Counted from the stretch's first letter, positions 15,610 to 52,880 are shown. The stretch is DNA of 64,000 nt from Candidatus Multivoradales bacterium (GCA_965223325.1 CBDCWI010000002.1:1056001-1120000); one strand, 5' to 3'. The notes: generated from the sequence alone by a model not told the origin. Numbers and translations: made by a program.

Positions 15610-16626
15610 ACCGTCCCGAATCGAAAGAACAGGTCCATCGAAGGCACGAATCCGCGGCGCGCGACGGAACAACGAAGTCCAAGATCGCCACTGCAGGGCG
15701 ACCACCCGAAAAAGGCGGCCCACGCAACGGACCGCTTGCGCCGCAAATGTGACGACTAGTTATCCCCGTGGTAAACGACGAATCAACATCGCGACGCCAC
15801 AACTACCCTGCACACCCCATCCGAAGAGGACGCCCGACCGACTAACGGTTGAGGCCGGAGTTGCAGTCCTGAACCGAACGAACCGTTCCATCGAAGGCAC
15901 GAATCCGCGGCGCGCGAAGGAACAACGAAGTCCAAGATCGCCACTCCAGGGCGACCACCCGAAAAAGGCGGCCCACGCAACGGACCGCTTGCGCCGCAAA
16001 TGTGACGACTAGTTATCCCCGTGGTAAACGACGAATCAACATCGCGACGCCACCACTCCGTGCACACCCCTTCCAACGAAGCACGCCCGCCACCGCCCAA
16101 CAGTTGAGGCGAGAGTCGCAGTCTTGAACCGAACGAACCGTTCCATCGAAGGCACGAATCCGCGGCGCGCGAAGGAACAACGAAGTCCAAGATCGCCACT
16201 CCAGGGCGACCACCCGAAAAAGGCGGCCCACGCAACGGACCGCTTGCGCCGCAAATGTGACGACTAGTTATCCCCGTGGTAAACGACGAATCAACATCGC
16301 GACGCCATAACTACCCTGCACACCCCATCCGAAGAGGCACGCCCGACCACCTAACGGTTGAGGCCGGAGTTGCAGTACTGAACCGAACGAACCGTTCCAT
16401 CGAAGGCACGAATCCGCGGCGCGCGAAGGAACAACGAAGTCCAAGATCGCCACTGCAGGGCGACCACCCGAAAAAGGCGGCCCACGCAACGGACCGCTTG
16501 CGCCGCAAATGTGAGGACTAGTTATCCCCGTGGTAAACGACCAACCAGCCTCGCGACGCCACCACTCTGTGCACACCCCTTCCAACGAGGCACGCCCACA
16601 AAGGCGTTAACCACGGGGATAACTAG
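15610..16626. repeat. Tandem array 1: ~4 x 254-bp units (A-B-A-B variants) ending in an inverted CTAG arm
   Basis: CTAGTTATCCCCGTGG at 15756, 16009, 16264 and 16518; its reverse complement CCACGGGGATAACTAG at 16611-16626. Confidence 0.95.
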
Positions 16627-17189
16627 TTCGTGAGCGCCGTCACATCATGTGACATCACGACCAGATCATGGGTGTTCCCCTGGCGATCAATGACCCAATC
16701 CGTCAGGAGCGCCTCGGCATTGAACCCCAGCGAGCGGAACATCTCCTGTGCCGCGACCTGCTCACGCGCCATCCTCGCGATGACCTTGACCAGCCCCAGC
16801 GATTCGGCGACCTGGAAGACCTCACGCGCCATGCGCGTCCCGAGGCCCTGCCCTCGACCACCGGCAGCCACGACGACCCGCACCTCGCCCAGGTGGCGCA
16901 TCCACGGTAGACCCTGCCGGTTGACGCTGGCATAGGCCAGCACTGCACCGCTGTCGTCACACGCCAGGAGGGTGACCTTCTGGTTCTCGGCCTGTTCCTC
17001 GATCAGGTTCTGAACGACGCCCGCCTGGGTGATATCGACCCGCAGGAACATCAGGTCATCGGGCTCGAGGCCGCGCGCGAAGTCGAGGAAGGCGTCCTTG
17101 GTCTCGGGACCAAGGCGCGTGATCTGGACCGAGCCTTTGCCGGTCTTGAGTTTGCGCGGGTACTGGCGATCGAGTGCAACGGACTTCAT
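16623..17189 (-). CDS. GNAT N-acetyltransferase (paralog 1)
   Basis: Acetyl-CoA motif RGQGLG; FRSLGF; DLVVM; clearly similar to 22300-22908. Confidence 0.9.
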   Translation of the reverse strand: MKSVALDRQYPRKLKTGKGSVQITRLGPETKDAFLDFARGLEPDDLMFLRVDITQAGVVQNLIEEQAENQKVTLLACDDSGAVLAYASVNRQGLPWMRHLGEVRVVVAAGGRGQGLGTRMAREVFQVAESLGLVKVIARMAREQVAAQEMFRSLGFNAEALLTDWVIDRQGNTHDLVVMSHDVTALTN

Positions 17190-17441
17190 GGTGTTCTTCC
17201 TCGCTTGGAGATATGGCCGTCACTGTCTCGAAAGCCGCGACTCGAACGTCGCTCGCGAGTTGATTGGCCGACACGTGTTGCTAAAACCTGAGAAGCAGTA
17301 TAGCCCTCTGTGATACCTTCGCGGCCCGCAAATCGAGGAGGTTGGCGGGCGCCCTTCGGCCAGGAACTCCACCCGGGAACCTACCCACGGTCTGCCTCTG
17401 ACCCGTCGCCCGACCTCCCCCACTCCAGAGAGAAAGACGTT

Positions 17442-19100
17442 TTGTCGCACCCGCGCCACCACGGTCGTCTCACCTCGACCGACGCCTCGTTCCTGTACCT
17501 CGAGCGCGATGAAGCGCCCATGCACATTGGCGCCGTCTGCCGTCTCGACGGCGAGGTTCCCTATGAGGCCTACAAAGCTAGCGTTGAGGCGAAGCTGGCG
17601 CGCCTGCCGCGCTTTCGCGAGCGCGTCGTCCAGGCGCCGCTCTTCCTCGGGCACCCCACCTGGGAGACCGATCACGACTTCGACATCTCGAACCACGTGC
17701 TGCTCCACGAGGTGCCGGCGCCGGGAAACGAGAAGGCGATGTCGGCCGTCATCAACGAGATCATCGCGACGCCACTCGACCGCAGTCGACCGCTCTGGGA
17801 GCTCCACATTCTTCACGGACTACGCGACGGTACGTCGACCATCGTGTCGAAAGTGCACCACGCGATGGTCGACGGTGTGGGCGGAAACGCCATCCTGACG
17901 ACCATTCTCGATCTCAACCCGCGGGCCGAGATTCCACAGTACGAAGACGACTACGAGCCCTCCGAACCGGGTTCGACTGGCACCCGCGTCCTCGACGCCC
18001 TGTGGGACTCCGCCCGCTCGGCCCTCGACTCGATGTACGAGTACCAGACGGCCACCTTCGAGGGTCTGCGCTCGTTTGACCGTCACCGCCTCACCAACAC
18101 CCTCGAGTTGATCCGCGAGGCGGCTCCCGAGCTCGCCCGACCGCCACGGCGCTTGCCGTTCAACGGGCGCTGCAAGGGAGAGCGCTCCCTGGTGTGGACC
18201 GAGTTCTCGTTTGCCGAAGCGCGCGCCGTTCGCAGCGCACTAGGCGGCACGGTCAACGACCTGATTCTCTCGTGCCTGGCCGGCGCGGTCGGGCGCTACT
18301 CTGAGGAGCACGGGGTCAAGACTCGCGGCCGAACCATGCGCGTCATGGTCCCGGTCAATGTGCGACCCGCCGACGCGGATGCCGATCTCGGCAACCTGGT
18401 TTCGGTGCTGCCCGTCGATCTGCCGCTCGACGTGAAAGATGTGCGCCATCGCATTGGGCTTATCCGCGAACGCACCCGCGTGCTCAAGCGCGGCCGCGTG
18501 GCGGAGGGCGTCAACGTCATGACCAGTCTGCTCGGTGCAGTTCCACCACCGCTGCAGGCGGGAGCCGGCGCCCTCGCCGCTTCACCCTTCCCGGTCTTCA
18601 ACATCGTCTGCACGAATGTTCCGGGCCCCCAGATTCCGCTCTACGCCCTCGGCCACCGCCTGCTGGCCTACTACCCGTATGTGCCCGTCGGCTTCGACAT
18701 GGGCGTCGGCTGCGCCATCTTCAGTTACGACCAGACGCTGCACGTCGGCTTCAACAGCGATACCAATGCCTGTCCCGATGTCGAGGTGCTGCGCGATGCC
18801 TTCGACGCCGAGCTAGAAAACGTTCGCCAGACTGCCGGCGTGCAGGCAATCCCCAAGATCGTGATCGGCAAGACCGCGCCGAAGACCGGCTCCTCGAGAA
18901 AGAACGCTCGCCCAGCCACAAGAAAGGCCAAGACCGGATCGACCGCTGCTAAGAAAGTCGCCAAAAAGGCCAAAAAGAAGGCAGCGAAAAAGAACGCTCG
19001 TAAGAAGCCGGCGAAGAAGCCAGCCAGAAAAAGCGGCGGCAAGAAGACGACGAAGAAGCGCACCAGGAAGAAGACGGCGGCGCGCAAGAAGCGCGCCTGA
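17442..19100 (+). CDS. Wax ester synthase/diacylglycerol acyltransferase (WS/DGAT) with C-terminal Lys/Ala-rich tail
   Basis: DASFLYLE...PMHIG; PLDRSRPLWE; catalytic HHAMVDG; TVNDL; TNVPGP. Tail reads KKVAKKAKKKAAKK... TTG start at 17442 inferred (ORF track 17310). Confidence 0.92.
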   Translation: MSHPRHHGRLTSTDASFLYLERDEAPMHIGAVCRLDGEVPYEAYKASVEAKLARLPRFRERVVQAPLFLGHPTWETDHDFDISNHVLLHEVPAPGNEKAMSAVINEIIATPLDRSRPLWELHILHGLRDGTSTIVSKVHHAMVDGVGGNAILTTILDLNPRAEIPQYEDDYEPSEPGSTGTRVLDALWDSARSALDSMYEYQTATFEGLRSFDRHRLTNTLELIREAAPELARPPRRLPFNGRCKGERSLVWTEFSFAEARAVRSALGGTVNDLILSCLAGAVGRYSEEHGVKTRGRTMRVMVPVNVRPADADADLGNLVSVLPVDLPLDVKDVRHRIGLIRERTRVLKRGRVAEGVNVMTSLLGAVPPPLQAGAGALAASPFPVFNIVCTNVPGPQIPLYALGHRLLAYYPYVPVGFDMGVGCAIFSYDQTLHVGFNSDTNACPDVEVLRDAFDAELENVRQTAGVQAIPKIVIGKTAPKTGSSRKNARPATRKAKTGSTAAKKVAKKAKKKAAKKNARKKPAKKPARKSGGKKTTKKRTRKKTAARKKRA

Positions 19101-19163
19101 AGCGAAGTCTCCCGGGCCCGGCTTCTCTTCGGACCGAGGCCCGTCGGGAGCAGCGACCTAGCA

Positions 19164-19718
19164 CTAACCTTCGCGCAGCCGATCTTCGATTTCTTCGAGC
19201 CGCCGACGTAGCTCCGCCAACTCGAGCGCCGCGTCGTTCACCTGCTCCTCAGGAGTCATCGGCTCTGCCTCGCTGGGTTTCGGAGGCGCCGGCCGGCGCG
19301 CGGCGCGAGTTGCCTTCATGAAGCCCCGCGCAGCGCCCAGCGGGTCGAGCATGCGCATCCACAGTTCTTGTTGACTGGCGGCCGCGGCCTGCGGACCTGC
19401 CTTCCAGCCCTCGCGAATTTTCTCCCATACCTCCGAAGCCGTACCCAGATACCACTCGAGAAAGTCGCGCTGGCCGGAACCCGCACGCACGAAGTCGCGC
19501 AGAAAGTCGACCGACGGCCCCTGGCCGCCGGCTTTGGATTCCTCGACGATGATCTGGGTGAGTACGTGGCGGGTGATGTCTTCCTCGGTCGCTCGGTCGA
19601 TCACCTGGACCTCTTCACCGTCGCGAACCAGCTGCGCCACACCCTCGAGGTTGATGTAGCTGCTGGTTTCGGTGTCGTAAAGGCGCCGATTCTCGTACTT
19701 CTTGATGACACGTGCCAT
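19164..19718 (-). CDS. phaR: PHA synthesis regulator PhaR
   Basis: MARVIKKYENRRLYDTETSSYINL...EDITRHVLTQII is the PhaR N-terminal DNA-binding signature. Confidence 0.92.
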   Translation of the reverse strand: MARVIKKYENRRLYDTETSSYINLEGVAQLVRDGEEVQVIDRATEEDITRHVLTQIIVEESKAGGQGPSVDFLRDFVRAGSGQRDFLEWYLGTASEVWEKIREGWKAGPQAAAASQQELWMRMLDPLGAARGFMKATRAARRPAPPKPSEAEPMTPEEQVNDAALELAELRRRLEEIEDRLREG

Positions 19719-19759
19719 AGGGGGGCCCTTTGTTGCGCCGCACACACGGGAGGTTGGTG

Positions 19760-19895
19760 CTGCGATGCAAAAAATATCAGAATCTCGCCGAAAAGTGCTT
19801 GACAAGTCATTCAGGGGTCCATACGATAATGCTGCATCGCAACATTGCTGCCTCAGAAGGCCTCTGATTCTGCAGCGCAGCATACTGCACCGCAA
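19760..19895 (+). promoter_or_regulatory. Sigma70-like promoter of the phasin gene with four PhaR-type boxes
   Basis: TTGACA (19799)-17 nt-TACGAT (19822); CTGC-N3-GCA(G/A) at 19760, 19832, 19870 and 19885 in the phaR/phasin divergent spacer. Confidence 0.7.
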
Positions 19896-19989
19896 AACGC
19901 CTCGGTCAACCGAGGCTGTGGCCCCGGACCAGACCTCCGGACCCGTGATCTAGAACCCAACCAAACCCCATTTCAAGGAGACCTCCACC

Positions 19990-20316
19990 ATGGCCAAGAA
20001 GACCACCACCAAGAAGAGCACCAAGAAGACCGCCAAGCCGGCCACCAGCAAGGCAGTCGAGTTCCAGCAGAAGCTCCTCGAACGCCAGCAGAACGCCTTC
20101 GATCGCACCTTCGAGGCGATCACCAACCTGCAGGAGCGCTCGGAAGACCGCGTCAATGGTTGGCTCGAGGACTCGAAGTACGTCCCCGAAGAGATCGCCG
20201 AGATGGCTGGCGTGTGGACCACCACTGCCCGCACGGCGCGCACCCACTACCGCAACAGCGTCGTCAAGAGCTACGAGCTCGCCGGCGAGATGGTGGGCAA
20301 CTTCGGTCGCTCATGA
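19990..20316 (+). CDS. Phasin-like granule protein with Lys-rich N-terminus
   Basis: Strong AAGGAG RBS; small amphipathic helical protein divergent from phaR; begins MAKKTTTKKSTKKTAKP; own terminator. Confidence 0.65.
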   Translation: MAKKTTTKKSTKKTAKPATSKAVEFQQKLLERQQNAFDRTFEAITNLQERSEDRVNGWLEDSKYVPEEIAEMAGVWTTTARTARTHYRNSVVKSYELAGEMVGNFGRS

Positions 20317-20372
20317 AGACCGCCGGGCGCACTTCGTAGACCTTGTCGCGATGTGAGCCTTGTTCGTCTCTT

Positions 20373-20405
20373 CAAAGCCCCCGCCTGAGGTGGGGGCTTT
20401 GTTTT
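20373..20405 (+). terminator. Rho-independent terminator
   Basis: CAAAGCCCCCGCC-TGA-GGTGGGGGCTTTG followed by TTTT. Confidence 0.85.
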
Positions 20406-20542
20406 ACCTACTGGTTGACGTCCTGGCGACCCTAACCCAGCAAGAAAGCGTGTTGCCGTTGCTAGAGCGGAGCGGTAGCCTGACGTTCAACCAGCAACAC
20501 GAACAGAAGAGTCCCCGTTGGGGCAAGAAGAGGAGTCACCTG

Positions 20543-21088
20543 ATGGCAAGTCGCCGATCGAATGACCCGTTCCAAGCCTTCCGTGATTGGATGGACGGAG
20601 CCGAGCGCCAGCTCAACACGATGATGAACGACGTGATGGAGGGCGAGTCTTTCACTCGTGCCCAGAGTCGCGTGACCGAAACCATGCTCGGCCTTCAAGG
20701 CCAGCTGAACCAGGCGGCACACCGCTACTTCTCGACCCTCAACCTACCGACGAGGACGGACTATCTGAGCCTCGCAGAGCGAGTCGGCGGCATCGAAGAA
20801 CAGCTCGCCACCATCGAGCGCCTGTTGCGTGAACGCGAAGCCGGCGGCGCGAAGACGGGAGCGCGTCCGGCACGCACTCGCAAGGCCCCGTCCGCCAGGA
20901 AGAAGTCGACCAGGAGAAAGCCAGCGGCCAAGAAGAAGGCAGCGAAGAAGAAGACCGCCAAGAAGAAGGCGAAGAAGAAGGCCGCCAAGAAGAAAGTGAA
21001 AAAGAAGGCCGCCAAGAAAAAGACTGCAAGGAAAACGAAGAAGAAGGCCGCAAGAAAGAAAACCGCGCGCAAGTCGTCGCGGCGTTAG
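20543..21088 (+). CDS. phaE: PhaE-like PHA synthase subunit with histone-H1-like C-terminal tail
   Basis: DPFQAFRDW...LNLPTRTD...LAERVGGIEEQL matches short PhaE proteins; directly upstream of phaC; long (KKKAAKKK)n tail; GAGGAG RBS. Confidence 0.72.
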   Translation: MASRRSNDPFQAFRDWMDGAERQLNTMMNDVMEGESFTRAQSRVTETMLGLQGQLNQAAHRYFSTLNLPTRTDYLSLAERVGGIEEQLATIERLLREREAGGAKTGARPARTRKAPSARKKSTRRKPAAKKKAAKKKTAKKKAKKKAAKKKVKKKAAKKKTARKTKKKAARKKTARKSSRR

Positions 21089-21150
21089 GCAGTACCGGAG
21101 ACCTGTTTCACTGGAACTGGTCAACGAGCGAATAGAGCTCGGAGCCTCCC

Positions 21151-22236: not shown

Positions 22237-22299
22237 CCTTGGCACCAAGCAACGAGCACACTGAGAACGTTGGCAACATTTTCGAACGAGAGGCATGGA

Positions 22300-22908
22300 A
22301 TGAGTAGCGGCACCCAGCAGACCAGCGACCTTCCGCGACGCGTTGAAGTCGGCAGCGAGGAGGTCGAGTTCCGCCTGATGACGCGCCAGGACAAGGACGC
22401 AATGCTCGAGTTCGCGCGCGCCCTCCCCCGCCACGACCTGCTCTTCCTGCGCCGTGACATCACCCAGCCGGAGGTCGTCGAAGCCTGGGGAGACGAGATC
22501 GAGCAGGGAATCCTGTCGACCATTCTGGCGGTCGCCGGAGACGGCTCGCGGGTTCTCGGCTACGCCACACTGCACCGCTCCGACCTACGATGGTCGGCGC
22601 ACGTCGCAGAACTGCGGATCGCGGTAGCCGAGGAAACTCGGCGCAGTGGCCTCGGCCGACTGCTCACCCAGGAGATCTTCCGCCGCGCCCTCGAGCTCGG
22701 CGTCGAGAAGATGGTCGCCCGCATGACGCTCGACCAAAAGGGTGCGATCTCGGTGTTCGAGAGCCTTGGCTTTCGCCCGGAGGCACTGATGCGCGACCAC
22801 GTCAAGGATCTCGACGGCCGCGCCCACGACCTGGTGGTGATGAGCCTGGCGGTCGCCGAGTTTCACAACACGCTCGACGCCTACGGGGTTTCGGAGGCTC
22901 TGACCTAG
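22300..22908 (+). CDS. GNAT N-acetyltransferase (paralog 2)
   Basis: RRSGLG; FESLGF; shares DLxFLRxDITQ and HDLVVMS with the GNAT at 16623. Confidence 0.9.
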   Translation: MSSGTQQTSDLPRRVEVGSEEVEFRLMTRQDKDAMLEFARALPRHDLLFLRRDITQPEVVEAWGDEIEQGILSTILAVAGDGSRVLGYATLHRSDLRWSAHVAELRIAVAEETRRSGLGRLLTQEIFRRALELGVEKMVARMTLDQKGAISVFESLGFRPEALMRDHVKDLDGRAHDLVVMSLAVAEFHNTLDAYGVSEALT

Positions 22909-23173
22909 GTTCGAAAGCCGGGCAAATTACAAGTTTTGCTAGAATATTGATGTGCGATGCGATCGAAATCGCAATCTCGCAGAACGGCGCAGAATCCATG
23001 CACAGTGGGCTCGAACGCCCAAACGGCCCCCACCTATCGAGGCTCATCGATTGACCCTCACCGAGGAGCCCCGGTACCTTTCGGCCCAGATCCCCACCCC
23101 TAGAAGGCCTCCACAGACCGTACGACCGATTCGCTTTCGATACCCCTTCGGCTCCGCGCAGAAAGGCCACCCC

Positions 23174-25539: not shown

Positions 25540-25631
25540 CCGTCGCGAAGCGCCAGCCAGGCTTGCTTAGACGCCAAACGAACGGTGGGTCCCGGGCCCG
25601 GGACTCGAGCGAGCGAAGCGAGCAAGCGACT

Positions 25632-27012
25632 CCTGCCCAACCGGATCGCGCTCGGCATAGGCCGCAGAAACACCCCAAGCGCTAGACAAGGGTTCCAACG
25701 AAGCCTAGAATCCGCCGCGCGCGACGAAACGTCGCAGGCCGATGACACGACTGCAGGGCGGCCGCGCCGGAATACGGCCCGCGCAGCGGACCGCTTGCGC
25801 GGCAGATGTAACGTCTAGCGACCCCGTGGTAACGACGTCACCCGGACACGACGCCACAACCCCGACACTAGATCCCGCCCAACCCGATCGCGCCCCACAT
25901 AGGCCGCAGAAACACCCCAAGCGCTAGACAAGGGTTCCAACGAAGCCTAGAATCCGCCGCGCGCGACGAAACGTCGCAGGCCGATGACACGACTGCAGGG
26001 CGGCCGCGCCGGAATACGGCCCGCGCAGCGGACCGCTTGCGCGGCAGATGTGACGTCTAGCGACCCCGTGGTAACGACGTCACCCGGACACGACGCCACA
26101 ACCCCGACACTAGATCCCGCCCAACCCGATCGCGCCCCACAAAGGCCGCTGAAACAACCGCAAGCGCTAGACAAGGGTTCCAACGAAGCCTAGAATCCGC
26201 CGCGCGCGACGAAACGTCGCAGGCCGATGACACGACTGCAGGGCGGCCGCGCCGGAATACGGCCCGCGCAGCGGACCGCTTGCGCGGCAGATGTGACGTC
26301 TAGCGACCCCGTGGTAACGACGTCACCCGGACACGACGCCACAACCCCGACACTAGATCCCGCCCAACCCGATCGCGCCCCACAAAGGCCGCTGAAACAA
26401 CCGCAAGCGCTAGACAAGGGTTCCAACGAAGCCTAGAATCCGCCGCGCGCGACGAAACGTCGCAGGCCGATGACACGACTGCAGGGCGGCCGCGCCGGAA
26501 TACGGCCCGCGCAGCGGACCGCTTGCGCGGCAGATGTGACGTCTAGCGACCCCGTGGTAACGACGTCACCCGGACACGACGCCACAACCCCGACACTAGA
26601 TCCCGCCCAACCCGATCGCGCCCCACAAAGGCCGCAGAAACAACCGGTTCCAACGGAGCCTAGAATACGGCCCGCGCAATCGTCACCCGGACACGACGCC
26701 ACAACCCCGACACTAGATCCCGCCCAACCCGATCGCGCCCCACAAAGGCCGCTGAAACAACCGCAAGCGCTAGACAAGGGTTCCAACGGAGCCTAGAATC
26801 CGCCGCGCGCGACGAAACGTCGCAGGCCGATGACACGACTGCAGGGCGGCCGCGCCGGAATACGGCCCGCGCAGCGGACCGCTTGCGCGGCAGATGTGAC
26901 GTCTAGCGACCCCGTGGTAACGACGTCACCCGGACACGACGCCACAACCCCGACACTAGATCCCGCCCAACCCGATCGCGCCCCACAAAGGCCGCAACCA
27001 CGGGGTCGCTAG
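25632..27012. repeat. Tandem array 2: ~5 x 243-bp units plus a 117-bp deleted unit, ending in an inverted CTAG arm
   Basis: CTAGAATCCGCC at 25705, 25947, 26190, 26433 and 26793; CTAGCGACCCCGTGG in each full unit; reverse complement CCACGGGGTCGCTAG at 26998-27012. Confidence 0.95.
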
Positions 27013-27788
27013 ACAATGGTCCAGCCGCCGTCGACGGCGATTGTCTGGCCGGTGACGTAGCTCGACGCATCCGAAGCGAGAAAAAGGAGGGCACCGTTGA
27101 GCTCGTGGGGCTCGCCGGCGCGCCCCATGGGAGTGCGCTTTCGTATCCAGGTTTTGCCGGTGTCGCTGTCGAACATCTCGCTGGTCATCTCGGAACGAAA
27201 CCAGCCGGGAGCGATCGAGTTCACCCGGATTCCACGCCGCGCCCATTGGGCCGCAAGCTCACGGGTCATGTTGACGACACCCGCCTTCGAGGCCGTGTAG
27301 GACGCCTGGGGAATCTGCCCAGCGCCAACGAAACCGAGAATCGAAGCGATGTTGATGATCGAGCCCGTCCGGGCGTCTTCTGCATACTGGCGCAACATCT
27401 CCTGCGCTGCCCGCCTCACGCACAAGAAGACCCCGGTGAGGTTGACGCCCACCACATGCTCGAAGGTCTCGCGGGTCTCGAGCTCAGCGGGCATTGGCGC
27501 CGAGACGCCGGCGTTGCTGACCAATACGTCGAGTCGGCCCCAGGTGTCGATGGTTTGCCGAACCATCGCATCGATCTGCTCTTCGTCGACGACGTCGCAG
27601 GCGATGGCCATGACCTCCGCGCCGCCCTCCCGCAGGCGACCGGCCAGTTGCTCGAGGCGATCCAGGCGGCGCGCTGCCACCACCACCCGAGCTCCCGCGC
27701 CGGCGAGCGTCTCGGCGAAGGCCACTCCGAGGCCCGAGGAAGCGCCCGTCACGATGGCGACGCGCTCGTCGAGCCGAAAGTTGTCCAC
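27009..27788 (-). CDS. Short-chain dehydrogenase/reductase
   Basis: TGASSGLG, SNAG, YTASK, NSIAPG, VDGG. Confidence 0.95.
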   Translation of the reverse strand: MDNFRLDERVAIVTGASSGLGVAFAETLAGAGARVVVAARRLDRLEQLAGRLREGGAEVMAIACDVVDEEQIDAMVRQTIDTWGRLDVLVSNAGVSAPMPAELETRETFEHVVGVNLTGVFLCVRRAAQEMLRQYAEDARTGSIINIASILGFVGAGQIPQASYTASKAGVVNMTRELAAQWARRGIRVNSIAPGWFRSEMTSEMFDSDTGKTWIRKRTPMGRAGEPHELNGALLFLASDASSYVTGQTIAVDGGWTIV

Positions 27789-31333: not shown

Positions 31334-31822
31334 CTAACGCTCTAGCGGGCTGAGAGTTTCCCGGGCATCACTGGCGATGGCGAGCCAATCGACCAGGCTG
31401 CCTGGGGCAACCACCTCGACTCCGGCATGCGGCGAGCGCAACAACCGCGGATCGGTGGTGGCCAGGAAGCGCGCTCCGGAAACCGCCGCAGCAAGGAAGT
31501 ACTCGTCATCAATTGTCGAGCCAGAAGAGGCCGAGCCTGGGAGCGGCACACCGGTTGGGTCTACCAACACCGCGACTCCCGCCAAGGCGGCGATCAACTC
31601 GCCTGGATCACCGTCGAGATGGCGCCGGATCGTGCGCTGCCGAAGGGTGTTTTCGATCTCCTCGAGAATCGCCGGGGTGAGCACCGCGGCGAGCAGCTCA
31701 CCGCGAAGGCAGGCGCGCAGCAAGAGACCGCTGGGACCATCTGGCCGTAGGAGTCCACTGACCACGACGGCCGGGTCGAGAACGACGCTTTCAACCTGCA
31801 CGGCGCCCAGACCTCTTTGCAC
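31334..31822 (-). CDS. PIN-domain toxin (VapC-like)
   Basis: VVLDPAVVVSGLL, ILEEI, DDEYFLAAA, LATTD; downstream of a Phd antitoxin. Confidence 0.8.
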   Translation of the reverse strand: MQRGLGAVQVESVVLDPAVVVSGLLRPDGPSGLLLRACLRGELLAAVLTPAILEEIENTLRQRTIRRHLDGDPGELIAALAGVAVLVDPTGVPLPGSASSGSTIDDEYFLAAAVSGARFLATTDPRLLRSPHAGVEVVAPGSLVDWLAIASDARETLSPLER

Positions 31823-31852
31823 CGTCTAGGCGACAGGGCAAAGCGCTACGCG

Positions 31853-32122
31853 TCACGAGCGCCCTTGGCGGCTTTTCTTCTTCGCCTTTTGCGCAACCTG
31901 ATCGACCTGTTCGAGCGCCAGCTTGCGCGCTTGTCGGTCGAGCGCTTCCAAGAGCCTCAGTTCGGACGCCTTCTCCATACGCGCCAGGCGCTCGACTGAG
32001 ACGATCGCCGCTAACGGCTTGCCGCGCCGTTCGATCACGTACTCGTCACCGTGTTCTGAAACGCGGTCGAGCAGGTCCCCGAGTTGGGATCTGACGTCGG
32101 CTGTCTTGACGGTCTTCTTCAT
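31853..32122 (-). CDS. Phd/YefM family antitoxin
   Basis: MKKTVKTADVRSQLGDLLDRV...YVIERRGKPLAAIVS. Confidence 0.88.
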   Translation of the reverse strand: MKKTVKTADVRSQLGDLLDRVSEHGDEYVIERRGKPLAAIVSVERLARMEKASELRLLEALDRQARKLALEQVDQVAQKAKKKSRQGRS

Positions 32123-32444
32123 GAATCGTTCTTGCCACAGAGCGTTGATCAGCAAGGAATCGAAACACCGCGAAACGAGCACTTCGGATTCGCGATCAAG
32201 CCGCGAACCAGTAGGTTTTCCAGGCATTTAGAGCCACGCGGAATCGAACTGGTGGACTCACGATTATAGCCCGACCCCGCCCGATTCAGGGCTTCGGCGA
32301 AGCTCGAGTCGGCGGCTCTCGAGAGGCGGGACGAACGATCCAGGAGGGGCAGCGGTTTGCGGCTGCCGGCACCGCCCCGCGTCACCGGAAATCCTCCTCG
32401 CGCGACGCCGCCGTCGGCGGTGAACCGACTCGAAATACTAGTTT

Positions 32445-33281: not shown

Positions 33282-33379
33282 AGCTTGAGAGTCTACGGCT
33301 CACGCGAGCAGGGGCAAGAGCCTCGCCAGCGGGCTTCGTGGCAGGATGCACCCAGCCAGCTCCCGGCTCGCAAACGTTC

Positions 33380-36004
33380 ATGTCCCAGGCGCCAACAACC
33401 GATCCCCAACCAAGAACGCCCGCCCTGGCGGCGCGTCTTGCCCAGCTCAGCGACAGTGACGGGCCTGACGCCTACCTCGACCACTTCCTCGACTGGGTGA
33501 TCGAACTGGGCTTCGACCTCTTTCCTGCCCAGGAAGAGGCCCTGCTCGAGCTGATGGCCGACCGCCATGTGATTCTCAACACCCCCACCGGGTCGGGAAA
33601 ATCACTGGTGGCAGCCGGGCAACACTGGAAGACACTTGCCGAGGGCGGAACCAGCTTCTACACCGCTCCGATCAAGGCATTGGTGAGCGAGAAGTTCTTC
33701 GCGCTCTGCGACACCTTCGGCGCCGACAAAGTCGGCATGTTGACTGGCGACGCCTCGATCAACGCCGATGCGCCGATCCTCTGCTGCACCGCCGAGGTGC
33801 TCTCGAACATGGCGCTCCGTCACGGAGGAGACCTGCGTGCCGACTCGGTGGTGATGGACGAGTTCCACTACTACGGCGACCGCGACCGCGGCGTCGCCTG
33901 GCAGATACCGCTCATCACCCTCTCCCGCACCCAGTTTCTGCTCATGTCGGCAACGCTGGGCAATCCCGCCCCGATCGCCGAGCGCCTGGACCATGACACG
34001 ACGCGCACCACCGCCACCGTCAAGAGCGCGGAGCGGCCGGTACCGCTCGAGTTCGAGTACCTCGAAACCCCAATCCACGAAACCGTCGAGACCCTGCACG
34101 ACAAAGGCCGCGCACCGATCTATATCGTCAGCTTCACGCAGCGCGAATGCGCCGAACTCGCGGGCGCACTCACCAGCCTCCAGATCACCACCCGCGAAGA
34201 GCGCATGGCGATTCGCGAAGCGATTGGTGACTTTCGTTTCGACACCGCCTACGGCAAGGAGATGAAACGCTATCTCTCCTTTGGCCTCGGAATCCATCAC
34301 GCCGGGCTGCTGCCGAAGTATCGCCTGTTGGTCGAGCGGCTGGCGCAGCAGGGACTGCTCAAAGCCGTGTGCGGCACCGACACCCTGGGGGTCGGCGTCA
34401 ACATTCCGCTGCGCACGGTGGTCTTTCAGAAGCTGTGCAAATACGACGGCGAGAAGGTCGGCATTCTGGCGGTGCGCGACTTTCAGCAGATCAGCGGCCG
34501 CGCGGGTCGCAAGGGATTCGACGATCAGGGCTGGGTGGTGTGTCAGGCGCCGGAGCATGAGATCGAGAACAAGCGGCTGGCGATGAAGGTCGCCGGTGAT
34601 CCGAAGAAGGCCAAGAAGCTCCGAAAGAAGAAGCCACCGACGCGCGGCTACGTTCACTGGGACCAGGCCACCTTCGAGCGCCTGGTGAGTGGAAACCCGG
34701 AGACCCTGGAGTCGCGCTTTCATCTCTCGCACGGGATGATTCTCGATCTCATTCAACGAGACGCCGATCGCGATGACCCCAACGCTTCGAACTTCGCAGC
34801 GATCCGAAAGCTACTCGCCGACTGCCACGAGCCGCCCGAGAAGAAAGCTGAGCTCCTCTCGGAGGCCGCTCTCAGGGTGCGATCACTGGGTCGTGCCGGC
34901 ATTCTGCGGATGACCCGCGATACCCAGAACAACTATCTCTGGGTCACCGTAGACCCCGACCTGCAGATCGATTTCTCGCTCCATCGGGGCCTGTCGCTGT
35001 TTCTGGTGGAGCTGGTCGAACGGCTCGACCCGGAGGCTCCTGACTACGGCTTGCGGCTCCTGAGCTTCACCGAGGCCATCCTCGAAGATCCGCGGGTGGT
35101 GCTCTATCGCCAGATCGACAAACAAAAAGACGAGCTGGTCGCCCGCATGAAGGCCGAAGGCATCGACTACGACGAGCGCATGGCGAAACTCGAGGAAGTC
35201 ACCCACCCCAAGCCCGAAGCCGAGTTCCTCTACGGCGCCTACAGCGCCTTTCGCAACATCCACCCGTGGCTCGGCGAAGACAACGTGCGCCCGAAGTCGA
35301 TCGGTCGCGAGATGTTCGAGGGCTACATGTCGTTCGAAGACTTCATCCGCCACTACGGCCTGCAGCGCTCCGAAGGCGTCGTCCTGCGCTACTTGAGCCA
35401 GCTGTACAAGGCGCTGACCCAGAACATCCCCGACGAACTCAAGACCGAAGAGGTCTACGACGTTCTCGGCTTCTTCCGCGCCATGCTCACCCGCGTCGAC
35501 ACCAGCCTGCTCGAAGAGTGGGAGAACATGCTCGATCCCGAGCGTGGCCTGAGCAAACGCGCCGGCACCGAAGCCGGCGAGCAGGAGATCGAGCACTACG
35601 AGCTCCTGCATGACCCACGTGCCCTGCGCGCCCGCATCCGCGCCGAGGTGCACCAGCTGGTGCGGGCCCTCGCGGCGCGGGACTGGGAGGAAGCCGAGCG
35701 CCTGGTACGGCCCGCCGATCCCGAGCGCCCCGACGAAAGAGGCTCGCTCGGCAGACAGGCCATCGAAGAAGCAATCGCCCCCTACTTCGAGAGCTACGAC
35801 CACATCGACTTCACGCCCCGGGCGCGCGAAGCCAAGTGGACCCGGGTGGAAGAACCGGAACCTCGCTTCTACCGGGTCACCCAGGTTCTGGTTGATCCCG
35901 AAGACGACAACTTCTGGTATCTCGAAGGCATCGTCGACCTGCGCGACCGCCAGCGCATCGACCCCGACCAGCCCTTGTTCATGCTGACCGGCATTCGCTC
36001 GTAG
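33380..36004 (+). CDS. Ski2/HelY-like DExH helicase with DUF3516
   Basis: TPTGSGKS, APIKAL, DEFH, MSAT, HHAGLLP, QISGRAGR; EGVVLRYLS. Confidence 0.92.
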   Translation: MSQAPTTDPQPRTPALAARLAQLSDSDGPDAYLDHFLDWVIELGFDLFPAQEEALLELMADRHVILNTPTGSGKSLVAAGQHWKTLAEGGTSFYTAPIKALVSEKFFALCDTFGADKVGMLTGDASINADAPILCCTAEVLSNMALRHGGDLRADSVVMDEFHYYGDRDRGVAWQIPLITLSRTQFLLMSATLGNPAPIAERLDHDTTRTTATVKSAERPVPLEFEYLETPIHETVETLHDKGRAPIYIVSFTQRECAELAGALTSLQITTREERMAIREAIGDFRFDTAYGKEMKRYLSFGLGIHHAGLLPKYRLLVERLAQQGLLKAVCGTDTLGVGVNIPLRTVVFQKLCKYDGEKVGILAVRDFQQISGRAGRKGFDDQGWVVCQAPEHEIENKRLAMKVAGDPKKAKKLRKKKPPTRGYVHWDQATFERLVSGNPETLESRFHLSHGMILDLIQRDADRDDPNASNFAAIRKLLADCHEPPEKKAELLSEAALRVRSLGRAGILRMTRDTQNNYLWVTVDPDLQIDFSLHRGLSLFLVELVERLDPEAPDYGLRLLSFTEAILEDPRVVLYRQIDKQKDELVARMKAEGIDYDERMAKLEEVTHPKPEAEFLYGAYSAFRNIHPWLGEDNVRPKSIGREMFEGYMSFEDFIRHYGLQRSEGVVLRYLSQLYKALTQNIPDELKTEEVYDVLGFFRAMLTRVDTSLLEEWENMLDPERGLSKRAGTEAGEQEIEHYELLHDPRALRARIRAEVHQLVRALAARDWEEAERLVRPADPERPDERGSLGRQAIEEAIAPYFESYDHIDFTPRAREAKWTRVEEPEPRFYRVTQVLVDPEDDNFWYLEGIVDLRDRQRIDPDQPLFMLTGIRS

Positions 36005-36179
36005 CTCCCGAGGGGAGTGGAGAGCCAACAAAGACGGGGGATTGACGACGAATTGAGGGTCGCCTGTTGATTCGCTTGTAACAAACCTGGTTCCTTGCGG
36101 AAGGAGTGAAGGACAGACGTTCTACCGGCCCGACGCCGCAATGGCAGGGGCCGCAACCTGACCTTCGAAAGGAACCCTC

Positions 36180-36752
36180 ATGAACATTTCAGCAATCACC
36201 CGTCCTTCCACAATCACCAAGACGATCTTGCTCGCCTCCGCCGTCCTTCTGTTCGGTGCCGCCATCCTGACGGCAGAGGACGACGCCAGCTCCGCCGCAA
36301 TCACCTTCGAGGAACTGCGTGCCGAAACCAGCCTCGAGACTCGGAACGCTGACCTCGACTCCATGACGTCGACCGTAAAGTTGGAGCCCGGCACGACTGC
36401 GCCTTGCATTCCGCGAAAGGGGTTCTTCTGCGCATGGGATCGGCGATTCGAAGTCCAGATGATCTGGGCCGACCCGCGGGACCGGACATTCAAGCACATG
36501 GACTGGCTGGAATACTCCGACGTTGCTGTACTGGCCAACTATGGCAACGCAGCGAACGTTGAGGTCATGGTCAAAGTCCTCCCGGCTTGCAACCTGAACA
36601 ACCATTTCTGGGTCTTTGCCGGCGGCGTGACGGACCGCTACGTGGCCATCATCATCCGCGACACCTGGACCGGGCGCCGAGTGGGCTACGAGAACCTGGC
36701 GGGCAATGCCTTCAGGACGGTCAACGATACGACCGCGATTCGCTGCAACTAG
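36180..36752 (+). CDS. Secreted protein with a Thermoanaerobaculia-type Cys-containing domain
   Basis: Signal peptide; C...RFEV..W...NVEVMVKVLPACNLNNHFWVFAGGVTD...DTWTG...YEN. I recognise this module from secreted proteins of that class (recall, not searched). Confidence 0.7.
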   Translation: MNISAITRPSTITKTILLASAVLLFGAAILTAEDDASSAAITFEELRAETSLETRNADLDSMTSTVKLEPGTTAPCIPRKGFFCAWDRRFEVQMIWADPRDRTFKHMDWLEYSDVAVLANYGNAANVEVMVKVLPACNLNNHFWVFAGGVTDRYVAIIIRDTWTGRRVGYENLAGNAFRTVNDTTAIRCN

Positions 36753-36778
36753 CGTTCGGAGCACCACAAAAGAAGATG

Positions 36779-36810
36779 AAGCCCGGCCGAGGAATCGGCC
36801 GGGCTTTCTT
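36779..36810 (+). terminator. Rho-independent terminator
   Basis: AAGCCCGGCCGA-GGAA-TCGGCCGGGCTT followed by TCTT. Confidence 0.88.
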
Positions 36811-36900
36811 GCGTTAACAGGGTCCTGATGAAACATCTCAGCCCTATGAACGTCCCATGAGTACAGCCACGACGATTCGTTCTCTACCGCGGAGCCCCCG

Positions 36901-39372
36901 ATGCCCAGAATCCCTGGCGGTCTCGCCATGCGTCGTCTCCTACGCACGCGCTCCTTCAGCACCACAGCGATCATCACCCTCGCCCTTGGTATCGCGGCGA
37001 ACGTCGCGGTCTTCTCGGTCGTGCGCACCGTGCTGCTCGAGCCGCTCCCCTACGCCGAGCCCGAGAATCTGGTGGCGATCCTCTACAGCGCCCCGGGAAT
37101 CGGCATGGACGAGGTCCCTCAGGCAGCGGCCCTGCACCTGACCTACCTCGATCAGTCCGAGGCGTTCGAAACGGTGGCGATGTGGGACAGCTGGCGCGCC
37201 GCGGCGACCGGCAACGGCCCGCCCGAGGAGATTCCGGTGCACGATGTGACCATCGAACTGCTGCCGCTCCTGGGCGTCGATCCCGTTCTCGGTCGGGGGT
37301 TCGCTACCGAAGACGCCCGGCCCAACGCTCCGCGCACCGCGATGCTCACCCACGAGTACTGGCAGCGTCGCTACAGCGGCGACCCATCGATTCTTGGCCA
37401 GGGGATCACCCTCCAGGGTCTCGATCGCACCATCATTGGGGTCCTTCCACCCGGCTTTCGCCTGCTCGATCGCGAGAGCGCTGTCCTCATGCCACTCCAG
37501 CTGGCGCGCGACGAGCTCTTCGTTGGCATGTTCAACTACGCCGGTGTCGGCCGTCTAAAAGACGGTGTCACGCTCGAGCAGGCGAGCGCCGACCTCAACC
37601 GCCTGCTACCCATCGCGGTCGACAACTTTCCCGGCGGCCTGACCAGGCAGGTCCTTTCCGAAGCCCAGTTGGCTGCGAACCTGCACCCGCTCCACGAGCG
37701 GTTGGTCGGCGACGTCTCGCAGTTCTTGTGGATCTTGTTCGCTGCGGTCGGCGTCGTCATGCTGATTGCTTGTGCCAACGTCGCCAACCTGTTTCTGGTG
37801 CGTTCAGAGGCGCGGCACCAGGAGCTAGCAGTTCGTTCCGCTCTCGGCGCCAGCCGTCCGGCCATTCTCGGTGAGCTCTTGAGCGAAAGCCTGTGGCTGG
37901 GTCTGTTCGCCGGCTTCGTCGGCATTCCTCTGGGATGGGCCCTGGTTCGGCTGCTGCGCTTCCTGGCTCCCGAGCCGCTTCCGAGAGTCGAACAGGTCGC
38001 GATCACACCGAGCGTCGTGGTGTTCGGCCTGGCCGTTTCGGTTCTGGCCGGGCTCATGTTTGGGCTCCTGCCTGCACTTCGTCAGGCGATCGCCCTCAGC
38101 CGCGGGCTCGTTCGCTCCCTCAAAGAGGGTGGCCGCGGCGACACCGGCGGCCGTAGTCCGGCGCGCGCCCTTCTGGTCATCGCCCAGATCGCCCTCGGTC
38201 TTGTGCTGTTGGTTGGCGGCGGTCTTCTCCTGCGCAGCTTCGACGCCATGAAGAGCGTCGACCCGGGCTTTTCTGAGCCGCGCTCGGTGATGACCTTCAG
38301 GGTCGGCATTCCCGGCGCATCGCTCGAGCAAGAGATCGATGCGCTCGCCATCCAGCGACAGATCCTGGACAACCTCAGAGCCATTCCGGGAGTTTCTTCG
38401 GTGGGTGCGACAACGGCGCTTCCGATGTCTGGCCGTCAGTCGGCCGATGCCACCAACATCGAAGATTTCCCAGTCGAGGAGGGCTCGTTTCCTCCCGTCG
38501 AACGTTTCAAGTTCGTCACCCCCGGCCTCTTCGAGACCCTTGGGCAATCTCTCCTGGCAGGCCGAACGCTGGCGTGGACCGACCTGCTCGAGCGCCGGCC
38601 GGTGGTCGTCGTCGACGAAGCGTTCGCTCGTAAGTATTGGGGTGAGCCGACGGCGGCTCTCGGCAAACGAGTCGCGCCGGCAGTGGTGTCTTCCAATGCC
38701 CTGCACTGGCGGGAGATCGTCGGCGTTGTCAAAACGGTGCACGACAACGGACCGGCACAGCCCGCCGAATCGACCCTCTACTTCCCCACCGTGATGAACG
38801 ACTTCTGGGGCAATGAACTCTTCGTGCAACGCTCGCTGAGCTTTGCGCTGCGTACCGAGAGAACCTCTGACCCGAGCCTTCTGACCCAGATTCAGCAGGC
38901 GGTCTGGTCACAGCGGCCCGATCTGGCAATCGCCCAGGTCGAAACCATGGACGAGATCTACCAACGATCGATGTCGCAAGCATCGTTTGCGATGCTGATG
39001 CTGCTACTTGCCGCCGGAGCCGCGCTCCTCATTGGTTCGGTGGGCATCTACGGTGTCGTCGCCTACATCGTCGCGCAGAGAACGCGCGAGTTCGGCGTGC
39101 GCATGGCGCTCGGCGCGACAGCGGCCCAGATCACTAGCGCGGTCCTGCGCTACGGGATGGTCATGGCGAGCATTGGCGTGGCGGTGGGGCTCATCGCTGC
39201 CGCCCTCTTGTCGGGAACCATGGCGCGGTTGCTCTTCGGCGTCGAGCCACGTGATCCACTGACGTTTGGGGTCGTTGCCCTGGTGCTTGCTGCAATCACT
39301 CTCCTGGCCAGCGCTCTGGCCAGCCGGCGCGCCGCCCAGGTCGACCCAGTCACCGCGCTGCGCGCTGACTGA
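36901..39372 (+). CDS. ADOP-type duplicated MacB/FtsX ABC permease
   Basis: TLALGIAAN..VFSVV, LIACANVANL, ELAVRSALGA, QRTREFGVRMALGA, VDPVTALRAD; no adjacent ATPase. Confidence 0.92.
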   Translation: MPRIPGGLAMRRLLRTRSFSTTAIITLALGIAANVAVFSVVRTVLLEPLPYAEPENLVAILYSAPGIGMDEVPQAAALHLTYLDQSEAFETVAMWDSWRAAATGNGPPEEIPVHDVTIELLPLLGVDPVLGRGFATEDARPNAPRTAMLTHEYWQRRYSGDPSILGQGITLQGLDRTIIGVLPPGFRLLDRESAVLMPLQLARDELFVGMFNYAGVGRLKDGVTLEQASADLNRLLPIAVDNFPGGLTRQVLSEAQLAANLHPLHERLVGDVSQFLWILFAAVGVVMLIACANVANLFLVRSEARHQELAVRSALGASRPAILGELLSESLWLGLFAGFVGIPLGWALVRLLRFLAPEPLPRVEQVAITPSVVVFGLAVSVLAGLMFGLLPALRQAIALSRGLVRSLKEGGRGDTGGRSPARALLVIAQIALGLVLLVGGGLLLRSFDAMKSVDPGFSEPRSVMTFRVGIPGASLEQEIDALAIQRQILDNLRAIPGVSSVGATTALPMSGRQSADATNIEDFPVEEGSFPPVERFKFVTPGLFETLGQSLLAGRTLAWTDLLERRPVVVVDEAFARKYWGEPTAALGKRVAPAVVSSNALHWREIVGVVKTVHDNGPAQPAESTLYFPTVMNDFWGNELFVQRSLSFALRTERTSDPSLLTQIQQAVWSQRPDLAIAQVETMDEIYQRSMSQASFAMLMLLLAAGAALLIGSVGIYGVVAYIVAQRTREFGVRMALGATAAQITSAVLRYGMVMASIGVAVGLIAAALLSGTMARLLFGVEPRDPLTFGVVALVLAAITLLASALASRRAAQVDPVTALRAD

Positions 39373-39440
39373 CCGGTAGCAGCGGGGAGGAGAACCGCAG
39401 CTCACGGCGAGCGTCTCGAGTAGGGCCGAGTATCGCGGGC

Positions 39441-40460
39441 TTACTCGAGATCTTCGACGATAGGCTTGAGTCTGGCGACACGACGGCATCGTGAGCCGGT
39501 TTCTCCCTGGTCTTGGGACGACTCGAGGGGTGTGCAGTAGTAGCTGGAGAAGTACGAGTGAATGAGTCCTCGCTCGAGAAGGAACGTCTCGAGATCGAGT
39601 GCGTCTTGAATGAGCTTGTGCACCCGCGAATCCTCGTGGCTGTGCTTCTTGAGACTGGCCACGAGCGGCACAACTACGTTTCCACCGTGGGGCCAGTACC
39701 GATCAACCGAGAACCAGCGCTCCAAGAGCGTTTCGATCTCTGACGAACGAATCATCTCGGTCGGGTCTTCGATCGCCAGCGGCGGCAGGACGCGCGGGAC
39801 ACGGTAGTACTCCTTCGGTGCCCGATCGTAGAGCTGTTGAGCCCAGCCGAGGTCCGCCTTTGTCCACTCTTCTCTCGAGGGCCCGACGTACTCAAAAGCG
39901 TAGAGGAATCCGTCGGGCCTGAGCGCGCGTCGGGCTAGTTCCAGAAAGGACTCGAGCTCACCGAGGTGGTGTAAGACGCCATGACAGAGGATGCCATCCA
40001 GCGGCGGATCTTCTCGGCGCACGCGGTCCTCGAGGTACGACACTGCATCGATCTCTTCGTAGGTAATCGTATTGTGACCGGCTGCCGCGGCCCGGTATCG
40101 AGCCTTTTCGAGGCATGCGGCACTCACGTCGATACCGTGAATCTCGCACGCGGGAAGCCGCTGGGCCGTCTTGCGCTCGAGGTCTCCAGCGCCACAGCCG
40201 ACCGAGAGCACCCGCAAAGGTGGCTCGCGCCACTCCTCCAGTAGGTCGTAGAAGATGTCGATGTAGTCGGAGCAGGAACCCGGCAGCATCCGCGCGTTGA
40301 AGGTTGCACGCACAATGGGGATCTCTAGCCAGTAGTTCGGCTCATCAGAAGAGGGAGAGCCTGTCGACCAGCGATCCCAGTAGGCACCGCTTCGAGCTGC
40401 CTGGGCGGCCGCCTCAGACCTTCGGCGACGCCACCTCCATGTTCGAAGTCGCTCTCTCAT
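39441..40460 (-). CDS. Class I SAM-dependent methyltransferase
   Basis: VLSVGCGAG, GIDVS, VLHHL, EYVGP. Confidence 0.85.
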   Translation of the reverse strand: MRERLRTWRWRRRRSEAAAQAARSGAYWDRWSTGSPSSDEPNYWLEIPIVRATFNARMLPGSCSDYIDIFYDLLEEWREPPLRVLSVGCGAGDLERKTAQRLPACEIHGIDVSAACLEKARYRAAAAGHNTITYEEIDAVSYLEDRVRREDPPLDGILCHGVLHHLGELESFLELARRALRPDGFLYAFEYVGPSREEWTKADLGWAQQLYDRAPKEYYRVPRVLPPLAIEDPTEMIRSSEIETLLERWFSVDRYWPHGGNVVVPLVASLKKHSHEDSRVHKLIQDALDLETFLLERGLIHSYFSSYYCTPLESSQDQGETGSRCRRVARLKPIVEDLE

Positions 40461-40760
40461 ACCTTCTTGACCCGTGGGCGCCTCGCCCACCTTCGCACAA
40501 GTGCTCCCTGCACCGGAACAACCAAGTGTAGTGAATCGCTCCGGTTTTCTCGGAGGCCGCAAACCTTGGAAGGGCGGAATCTTACTCCCGACCCTGCACG
40601 GCATCGCCGCGCGATATGTGTCCCCACCGATGCGAGCGGTTGGTGTCTCGCGTCAACCAGATTGGCCGGTGGCACGACAACCTGTCTGGCCGGTCGTCGC
40701 GGCTTGCCAATGCTGGCGTAGCGGTCGAGAGATACCGATCCTCAGATGGTCGGTGCTGGT

Positions 40761-41099
40761 GAACCCCCATCAGTATCGCTCAACGAACCCAGCTGCGCCT
40801 CTCGAGCGATCGAAGTCCGACCGAGTACGCGCCTCACGCCCTTAGGGCCCCCAACCAACAGAAACTTCCACTCAAGCCCAGGAATCCGCGGCGCGCGACC
40901 AGCGATCGAAGTCCGAGGACGCCAAAGCAGGGCGAGCGCCTCCGAAAACGGCACCCACCGCGGACCGCTTGCGCCGCAAGAGTGACACTAGAGCGGCGCG
41001 TGGTAACGACAAACCGGCGCCAAAAGGTCGAACCTCCATCAGTATCGCTCTCCAAACCACCTGCACCCACAAAAGGCCGTAAACCACGCGCCGCTCTAG
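40761..41099. repeat. Third locus (~1.3 units) of the same ~250-bp repeat family
   Basis: GAATCCGCGGCGCGCGA, CGGACCGCTTGCGCCGCAA, CTAGAGCGGCGCGTGG (40988) and its reverse complement ending at 41099; CCATCAGTATCGCTC repeated 269 bp apart. Confidence 0.85.
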
Positions 41100-52874: not shown

Positions 52875-52880
52875 CTCGCT

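Follow-up and report, generated by a model that had tools for sequence, protein, structure and literature searches.

A single family of non-coding repeats occupies three intergenic loci, always in one orientation, in the stretch of Candidatus Multivoradales bacterium DNA analysed here (GCA_965223325.1, CBDCWI010000002.1:1056001-1120000; a 64-kb window with ~65% G+C). These loci—array 1 (~15538-16626), array 2 (25598-27012) and locus 3 (40698-41099)—each end on the right in a fold-back that runs from one CTAG to another, and the observation is that of a real, unannotated, structured repeat family. The initial annotation had already described three homologous loci sharing one orientation, which the motif counts given below bear out; it had drawn their bounds too narrowly, however, as the left edges of all three reach farther out in the form of degenerate older units, and locus 3, which it had taken for a single copy, actually holds ~1.9 units. 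The parts of the three loci are as follows, P1 being the stem that closes the core module.

15538..16626, minus strand (the predicted folded strand; units are described on the plus strand): array 1, a degenerate left remnant followed by four units
15612-15821, 15864-16088, 16119-16342 and 16373-16626: array 1 units, as profile matches
16410..16517, minus strand: terminal core module of array 1
16518..16626, minus strand: terminal fold-back of array 1, 109 nt, with a perfect outer stem of 17 bp and 23-nt arms at 96%
25598..27012, minus strand: array 2, a degenerate left remnant, units, a deleted unit and a terminal unit
25678-25906, 25920-26157, 26163-26398 and 26406-26635, with the terminal unit at 26766-27012: array 2 units
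~26645-26760: internally deleted unit of array 2
26796..26902, minus strand: terminal core module of array 2, with a compensatory change in P1
26903..27012, minus strand: terminal fold-back of array 2, 110 nt, with a perfect outer stem of 16 bp
40698..40863, minus strand: older degenerate unit of locus 3, with remnants of the core 3' end, left arm and fold-back interior
40864..41099, minus strand: intact unit of locus 3, made up of leader, core (40882-40987) and fold-back (40988-41099, 112 nt)

A complete unit measures ~235 nt. It opens with a short leader that resembles GTTCCAnCGAAG and is weakly conserved, continues with a core of ~107 nt and closes with the CTAG-to-CTAG fold-back. The core starts with GAATCCGCsGCGCGCGA and ends with CGGACCGCTTGCGCsGCA-nnn-GTGAC; between the left arm that follows it (CTAG-N7/8-GTGGTAACGAC) and the right arm lies an interior of 65-75 nt that ends in CCCACAAAGGC. 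Although the N7/8 segment of the arm differs between loci (TTATCCCC, CGACCCC and AGCGGCGC), the right arm is the exact reverse complement of the left arm in each terminal fold-back, and the span from CTAG to CTAG is 109 nt (16518-16626), 110 nt (26903-27012) and 112 nt (40988-41099), just as first annotated. Identity between loci is highest in the core (75-77%), which holds blocks of 17-18 nt that are invariant except for one covarying position each, and lower in the fold-back interior (60-64%) and the leader (52-61%). Homology extends ~130 nt to the left of the first CTAG, a feature that the initial annotation had rightly considered too much for a plain miniature inverted-repeat transposable element (MITE) bounded by terminal inverted repeats (TIRs). 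An intact right arm is confined to the rightmost unit of each locus and the remaining right arms are degenerate, those of the internal array-2 units being retained in a form that still ends in CTAG. Six-frame translation of the three loci yielded no open reading frame (ORF) common to their three families of units, and the element is non-coding. Nor did the N7/8 bases have a third partner, as no consistent match or complement to them was found elsewhere in the unit or its flanks.

Copies were counted across the window by several means. Ten occurrences of the left-arm motif CTAG-N6-9-GTGGTAA were found, all on the plus strand and all within the three loci (shuffling expects 0.01), together with three of the right-arm motif AACCAC-N6-9-CTAG, one closing each locus on the right (16609-16626, 26996-27012 and 41082-41099; 0.06 expected). 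Two long core blocks occur exactly 10 times each, again confined to the three loci; elsewhere in the window they have one and two matches with three mismatches, where chance predicts 1.66 and 2.95. A profile hidden Markov model recovered 10 units plus one fragment and no further copy with E < 0.1 in the 64 kb. Tandem Repeats Finder reported a period of 253 nt in 3.9 copies (92% matches) and one of 243 nt in 4.2 copies (98%). A covariance model of the fold-back, a check that had been proposed for this family, was run on both strands with filters off and scored the terminal fold-backs at 107.5 bits (array 1), 85.9 bits (array 2) and 110.4 bits (locus 3); the internal pseudo-fold-backs reached 39-50 bits in array 2 (111-114 nt) and 17-26 bits in array 1, and the 64 kb held nothing unrelated above 15 bits and no extra copy. 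In the older unit of locus 3, positions 40761-40796 resemble 41030-41065 at ~80%, and 40805-40830 hold a fragment of the 5' half of the core.

Pairing, rather than sequence, is what the arms conserve. Aligned across the three loci, the outer helix comprises 17 pairs, six of which (6/17) have changed on both sides, with 100% of cells paired; none of 500 shuffles matched either the observed percentage paired or the covariation score, and when partner columns were slid as a control, pairing fell to 38-54% of cells. The outer stems are perfect at every locus and 16-18 bp long, the longest (18 bp) being that of locus 3. Pairing in the core holds for 93% of cells of the alignment, and P1 carries a covarying GC-to-CG swap in array 2, with pairs GCCGCGC/GCGCGGC there versus GCGGCGC/GCGCCGC at the other two loci. 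On the minus strand of the array 1 terminal core, P1 (AUUUGCGGCGC with GCGCCGCGGAU) encloses a hairpin, P2 (GCGGUCCG...UGGGCCGC, then CUUUUU), as well as further stems.

Several features distinguish the two strands. On the minus strand, P2 contains an invariant U.G pair, and P1 is extended by U.G pairs that turn into C-G in array 2, their plus-strand equivalents being A.C mismatches. G.U pairs number 11-18 in the minimum-energy folds of the minus strand and 1-4 in those of the plus strand, and the T content of the plus strand is 9-11% in the arrays versus 16% window-wide. Wobble pairs and base composition thus suggest that the minus strand is the folded one. The consensus fold energy is -72.1 kcal/mol for the minus strand versus -48.9 for the plus strand. 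Energies computed for mirrored structures, in contrast, are unreliable because non-canonical pairs are inadequately penalised. GC skew is negative across the entire window, which by the usual rule suggests the minus strand as template of lagging-strand synthesis; single-strand transposases act on that template (PMC3333891), and all three loci (3/3) have the same orientation relative to it.

The arrays themselves retain traces of how they grew. Array 2 contains two units without a single difference (100% identity over the full length) and one that is an internally deleted derivative; a higher-order period of 360 nt runs through 26321-26996 (Tandem Repeats Finder), and the terminal unit matches an internal one at 100% over 300 nt, up to the junction between interior and right arm. 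Units of array 1 are mosaic, the first and third being 97% alike. Given the identical units, the deletion derivative, the 360-nt period and the mosaic units, the arrays appear to have arisen by unequal recombination or segmental duplication and conversion, not by rolling-circle copying. The pattern expected of such a process is the one seen here, in which the right arm at the edge escapes homogenisation and still complements the left arms, whereas internal right arms have drifted.

Both arrays lie between converging genes. Array 1 has an M61 peptidase gene and a GNAT acetyltransferase gene on its two sides and fills most of the gap from the probable M61 stop (15526-15528) to the GNAT stop; array 2 separates an amidohydrolase gene (stop 25539) from an SDR gene; and locus 3 lies between diverging methyltransferase and ATP-dependent DNA ligase genes.

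16623..17189, minus strand: GNAT acetyltransferase gene, with its TAG stop inside the CTAG at 16623-16626
27009..27788, minus strand: SDR gene, with its TAG stop inside the CTAG at 27009-27012
39441..40604, minus strand: methyltransferase gene
41187..42785, plus strand: ATP-dependent DNA ligase gene

At both loci that have such a converging gene (2/2, or 2/3 overall), the terminal CTAG supplies its TAG stop. In the SDR protein, the Pfam domain extends to residue 257 of 259; with the domain complete, the gene end is intact and the stop looks native. Stop codons of 40 genes in the window were TAG in 19, TGA in 20 and TAA in one, and 11 of the 40 genes end in CTAG, a usage that seems unusual for a genome of 65% G+C in that TAG is frequent. 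A CTAG target combined with selection against insertions within genes would account for the placement on stop codons. The M61 peptidase ORF (13530-15752) appears frameshifted near 15270-15290 and runs into array 1: after residue ~580 its frame is R/P/S-rich nonsense, while the +1 frame gives a plausible C-terminus with the stop at 15526-15528. This frameshift is either a sequencing error or the mark of a pseudogene.

Searches for relatives found none. The repeat family looks like an undescribed relative of bacterial extragenic palindromic repeats and would be lineage-restricted. Rfam returned no match in the whole window at gathering thresholds, in line with the initial annotation, which had assigned the element to no named family, and no IS605- or HNH-associated RNA family was found in the Rfam scans. 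The best hit at E<=10 was Actino-pnp (22.6 bits against a threshold of 47.7), at locus 3 alone, and was rejected as below threshold and unreproduced at arrays 1 and 2. BLASTN in distant mode gave no match among plasmids for units of all three loci, and none among phages for the array-1 and locus-3 units. A 150-aa minus-strand ORF across array 1 shared words with 79 candidates in a set of 5.8 billion proteins, none of which scored; HMMER against 1.84 billion representatives gave the same ORF three weak matches (E 3.5e-10 to 4.8e-4), which we rejected as unrelated repetitive proteins whose composition is unlike that of translated high-GC DNA. In the literature we found no CTAG-tagged fold-back repeat with these motifs, a search that did not cover the supplementary tables of PMC3733652, where other types of tag may be listed.

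The closest described systems are the REP/BIME/REPIN sequences and their RAYT proteins (TnpAREP, Y1-HUH), and we would say at most that the element works like a REP, without filing it as one. Like REPs, it is extragenic and oriented, and its stem has at its foot a four-base tag whose last three letters are TAG. REP termini often provide the TAG stop of the adjacent ORF, head-to-head REP dimers 20-100 bp apart fold as a single hairpin, and REP clusters are reiterated in tandem along with flanking DNA (PMC3733652); BIME copy number is variable at a locus, and some REP stem positions vary between copies yet remain complementary (PMC3333891). RAYT/TnpAREP is described as binding a folded single strand, requiring the tetranucleotide tag and cutting single-stranded DNA (ssDNA) between C and T (PMC3333891, PMC8266576). 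In the manner of a REPIN or head-to-head dimer, the repeat described here has CTAG outermost, inverted arms and a length of 109-112 nt that folds as one minus-strand hairpin.

Our tentative preference is worded with REPs in mind: the family would be a REP/BIME/REPIN-like composite extragenic element, handled as folded minus-strand ssDNA by an enzyme encoded elsewhere, located where genes end in CTAG and expanded in place through recombination. On this account, the unit is or was non-autonomous mobile DNA. An enzyme supplied in trans would act on it in the form of a folded single strand and recognise two things, the sequence of the invariant core blocks and the shape of the fold-back. Integration would take place at CTAG, a tetranucleotide that in this genome is often found at gene ends; a resident copy would then become a tandem array by unequal recombination or slippage, in the course of which the outermost, gene-proximal right arm would stay complementary to the left arms and internal right arms would drift. 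The enzyme may be of the Y1-HUH (RAYT-like) kind.

A number of observations weigh against this preference. Among 49 ORFs of the window scanned with Pfam, none belonged to a transposase, integrase, reverse transcriptase or HUH family, hence no cognate enzyme, as the initial annotation had also stated, so that mobility is inferred; the lack of a RAYT/Y1-HUH gene among these ORFs says little at the scale of 64 kb, since RAYTs are typically single-copy (PMC5581495). The two strands have about equal folding z-scores (-2.8 to -3.3 on the minus strand versus -3.0 to -4.0 on the plus strand), which on energy alone leave the choice of strand undecided; the step from GC skew to a lagging-strand template is likewise indirect. 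With only three independent copies the covariation statistics are weak, suggestive but inconclusive, and perfect complementarity of the arms can also stem from DNA-level templating without selection. Copies of the right flank at internal junctions, which by eye had suggested repeated insertion or a long target duplication, were not significant (scores of 13, 15 and 15 versus null means of 15.0-16.6), and we rejected that candidate. High-copy relatives, which would be expected of such an element, were unseen: a pattern scan of 185,579 species genomes, a set in which the source genome may be masked or missing, requiring the two exact core blocks 60-85 nt apart, gave 24 loci in unrelated taxa, all due to chance, and BLASTN of the units against these loci matched only the 17-29-nt anchor, with nine alignments in six loci and none longer.

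The likeness to REPs is also incomplete. By the definition in PMC8266576, REP arms are short self-palindromes of 20-50 nt, whereas the arms here (16-23 nt) are not self-complementary and pair with each other only, 65-75 nt apart. The tag reads CTAG in place of GTAG; the former is missing from the main text of PMC3733652 and features in PMC8266576 only as a mutant with reduced cleavage. The structured, conserved core of ~107 nt attached to the fold-back has no counterpart in REP or BIME. The three copies of the element are far more diverged than those of typical REP populations. REPs and REPINs run to tens or hundreds of copies per genome, and the count of three loci with 10 units given here is that of a 64-kb window.

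Other systems that we compared—integron attC sites, TIR-MITEs and the ends of IS200/IS605 elements with their non-autonomous derivatives—each share features with the repeat yet fail at least one defining one. Sites of the attC type are ~60-140 nt long with core sites RYYYAAC / GTTRRRY; recognition by folded single-strand shape would apply to both, and both form arrays of elements of similar length. Unlike attC, the arms here show no visible RYYYAAC / GTTRRRY, no ORF cassettes lie between the sites, the window encodes no integrase, and each array has a single intact fold-back. IS200/IS605 elements undergo strand-specific ssDNA transposition on the lagging-strand template and do not duplicate the fixed tetra- or pentanucleotide next to which they insert; recognition of their hairpins depends on shape, and guide-base pairing selects their cleavage sites (PMC3333891, PMC8266576). 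We infer that the target would survive insertion, so that further insertions at one site could yield head-to-tail arrays in which the newest copy adjoins the target. The repeat differs from them in having one 110-nt fold-back instead of two short subterminal hairpins, and tnpA and tnpB are absent from the window.

Nearly as likely as the REP-like element, though doubtful in its own right, is a purely RNA-level explanation, in which the minus-strand transcript serves as a 3'-untranslated-region module of the upstream gene or as a small RNA family. A hairpin after the stop would protect the mRNA 3' end or feed a double-strand RNase, the core would be terminator-like (P2 plus a U run), and the loci would have spread by duplication rather than transposition. 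Substitutions compatible with wobble pairing, together with richness in G/U, speak for a minus-strand RNA that folds, and the fold-back of arrays 1 and 2, beginning as it does within the stop of a minus-strand gene, would be co-transcribed with that gene; moreover, the intact hairpin is found solely in the gene-proximal unit, as selection on the first transcribed unit predicts. Locus 3, on the contrary, is downstream of no gene. P2 with CUUUUU was called terminator-like in all four array-1 units (4/4) and locus 3 has UUUU at the equivalent place, but the U run of array 2 is degraded (UAUUCC), the terminator scan was negative in array 2 and locus 3, and P2 lies inside P1, so that termination at P2 would block the covarying P1. 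We found no promoter or terminator common to all three loci, such sites being family-specific: the promoter-like TAGACA-17-TAGAAT (10/12 promoter matches) is limited to the plus strand of array 2, upstream of the core in five units (25683-26799), and no promoter-like match stands at the homologous positions of array 1 and locus 3. The outer stems, with 16-18 bp all Watson-Crick and zero G.U at 3/3 loci, are also more regular than RNA selection usually produces, and Rfam holds no such family.

Explanations that keep the element at the level of mobile DNA but change its mechanism fare less well. It is improbable, in our estimate, that the family is a composite mobile element with one folded strand, two recognition modules and integration directed to CTAG stops, in which the ~107-nt core would dock an unlinked recombinase or serve as a bridge/omega-RNA-like cofactor, the fold-back would be attC-like and recognised by shape only, leaving the arms free to vary, and repeated insertion at a surviving target would yield polar arrays with the newest intact copy beside the gene. 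Slightly less probable still are two superimposed elements, the fold-back being a TIR-MITE with target duplication that landed three times in the CTAG ending an older core repeat. TIR-MITEs such as Correia, RUP, ERIC and the IS630/IS5-derived ones are likewise small and intergenic with terminal inverted repeats, and may have a CTAG/TA target; IS630- and IS5-type transposases prefer CTAG. The fold-back has terminal inverted repeats of 16-23 bp with CTAG on both sides, and CTAG, being palindromic, could be a duplicated target; here, however, the two CTAGs belong to the stem. Transposase-dependent TIRs normally keep their tips conserved, whereas the outermost 7-8 nt of these arms are wholly different between copies, and the units are tandemly amplified with one arm lost. 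Mobile elements nested in repeats are known, as with ISPpu9 copies located in REP sequences (PMC8450116), but fold-back and terminal core occur together at 3/3 loci, with no solo copy in the 64 kb, and the conserved GTGAC-n-CTAG-N7/8-GTGGTAACGAC spans the supposed boundary. The window is also without a transposase gene. The initial annotation had seen in the arrays a resemblance to rolling-circle replication (HUH/Helitron/IS91-like). A Helitron-, IS91- or ISCR-like replicative element, with the terminal hairpin as stop signal and arrays arising from read-through, is in our view very unlikely. The hairpin does stand at one array end only, polarity is the same in all arrays, and older, more degenerate units are distal to the hairpin end. 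Yet no Rep, HUH-helicase or IS91-type gene is present in the window, a Helitron-type end signature was not seen, and the fold-back, at 110 nt with the same CTAG tag at both feet, is no short subterminal hairpin; the structure of the arrays fits unequal recombination instead, and the internal units of array 2, by bearing degenerate right arms, are complete elements rather than read-through products. Least probable of all is an assembly artefact in which reads of a dispersed repeat were mis-joined or over-expanded. Arrays of 1.0-1.4 kb made of near-identical units of 243-255 bp are difficult for short-read assembly, but the usual effect of assemblers is to shorten arrays of this kind by collapsing their copies, the units differ in an ordered, locus-specific way, the flanks are unique with intact converging genes, and locus 3 and the terminal units are independent of array copy number.

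Apart from this family, the window holds a separate MITE-like element at 10694-10984, whose terminal inverted repeats, 31 nt long and perfect, lie at 10695-10725 and 10953-10983, 227 nt apart, and which is followed by a heptamer array (CGCCAAG x 8.6 at 11028-11087); its sequence is unrelated to the fold-back family and has no plasmid BLASTN match. A type III secretion cluster occupies 49468-63981 on the minus strand (SctV, SctU-like, SctT-like, SctR-like, SctN and FliH/SctL-like proteins), including an SctQ-like protein with an FHA/YscD-type domain, and is adjoined by two FHA-domain proteins; SctV scores above the injectisome model cut-off and below the FlhA cut-off, with at most 42% identity in plasmid tblastn. 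PhaR/PhaC, WS/DGAT and a LigB-like ligase are also encoded, and Lys/Ala-rich (AKKK-type) repeat tracts at 18965-19081, 19977-20041 and 20908-21066 lie at the C-terminus of the WS/DGAT ORF and of two further ORFs, which adjoin PhaR and PhaC. On the minus strand at 31334-32227, adjacent PIN-domain and Phd/YefM-type antitoxin genes probably form a type II toxin-antitoxin pair.

Should the REP-like reading of the fold-back family prove right, that is, if the element is mobile and recognised by its structure, the REP/REPIN idea would be extended to a CTAG tag and a larger composite unit. Mobility would also carry it to a high-GC lineage outside the well-studied gamma-proteobacteria and point to a single-strand enzyme elsewhere in the genome. 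Three diverged copies, with compensated arms and a near-invariant core, would help to separate the parts read by shape from those read by sequence, and make the element convenient for biochemical work. Were its role one in RNA instead, the element would be an unannotated 3'-end module that sets the context of stop codons and probably the transcript ends of its neighbours. Whichever reading holds, whole intergenic regions are taken up by arrays of 1.0-1.4 kb, which gene callers would probably miss or mis-annotate; the M61 ORF, for one, extends into array 1.

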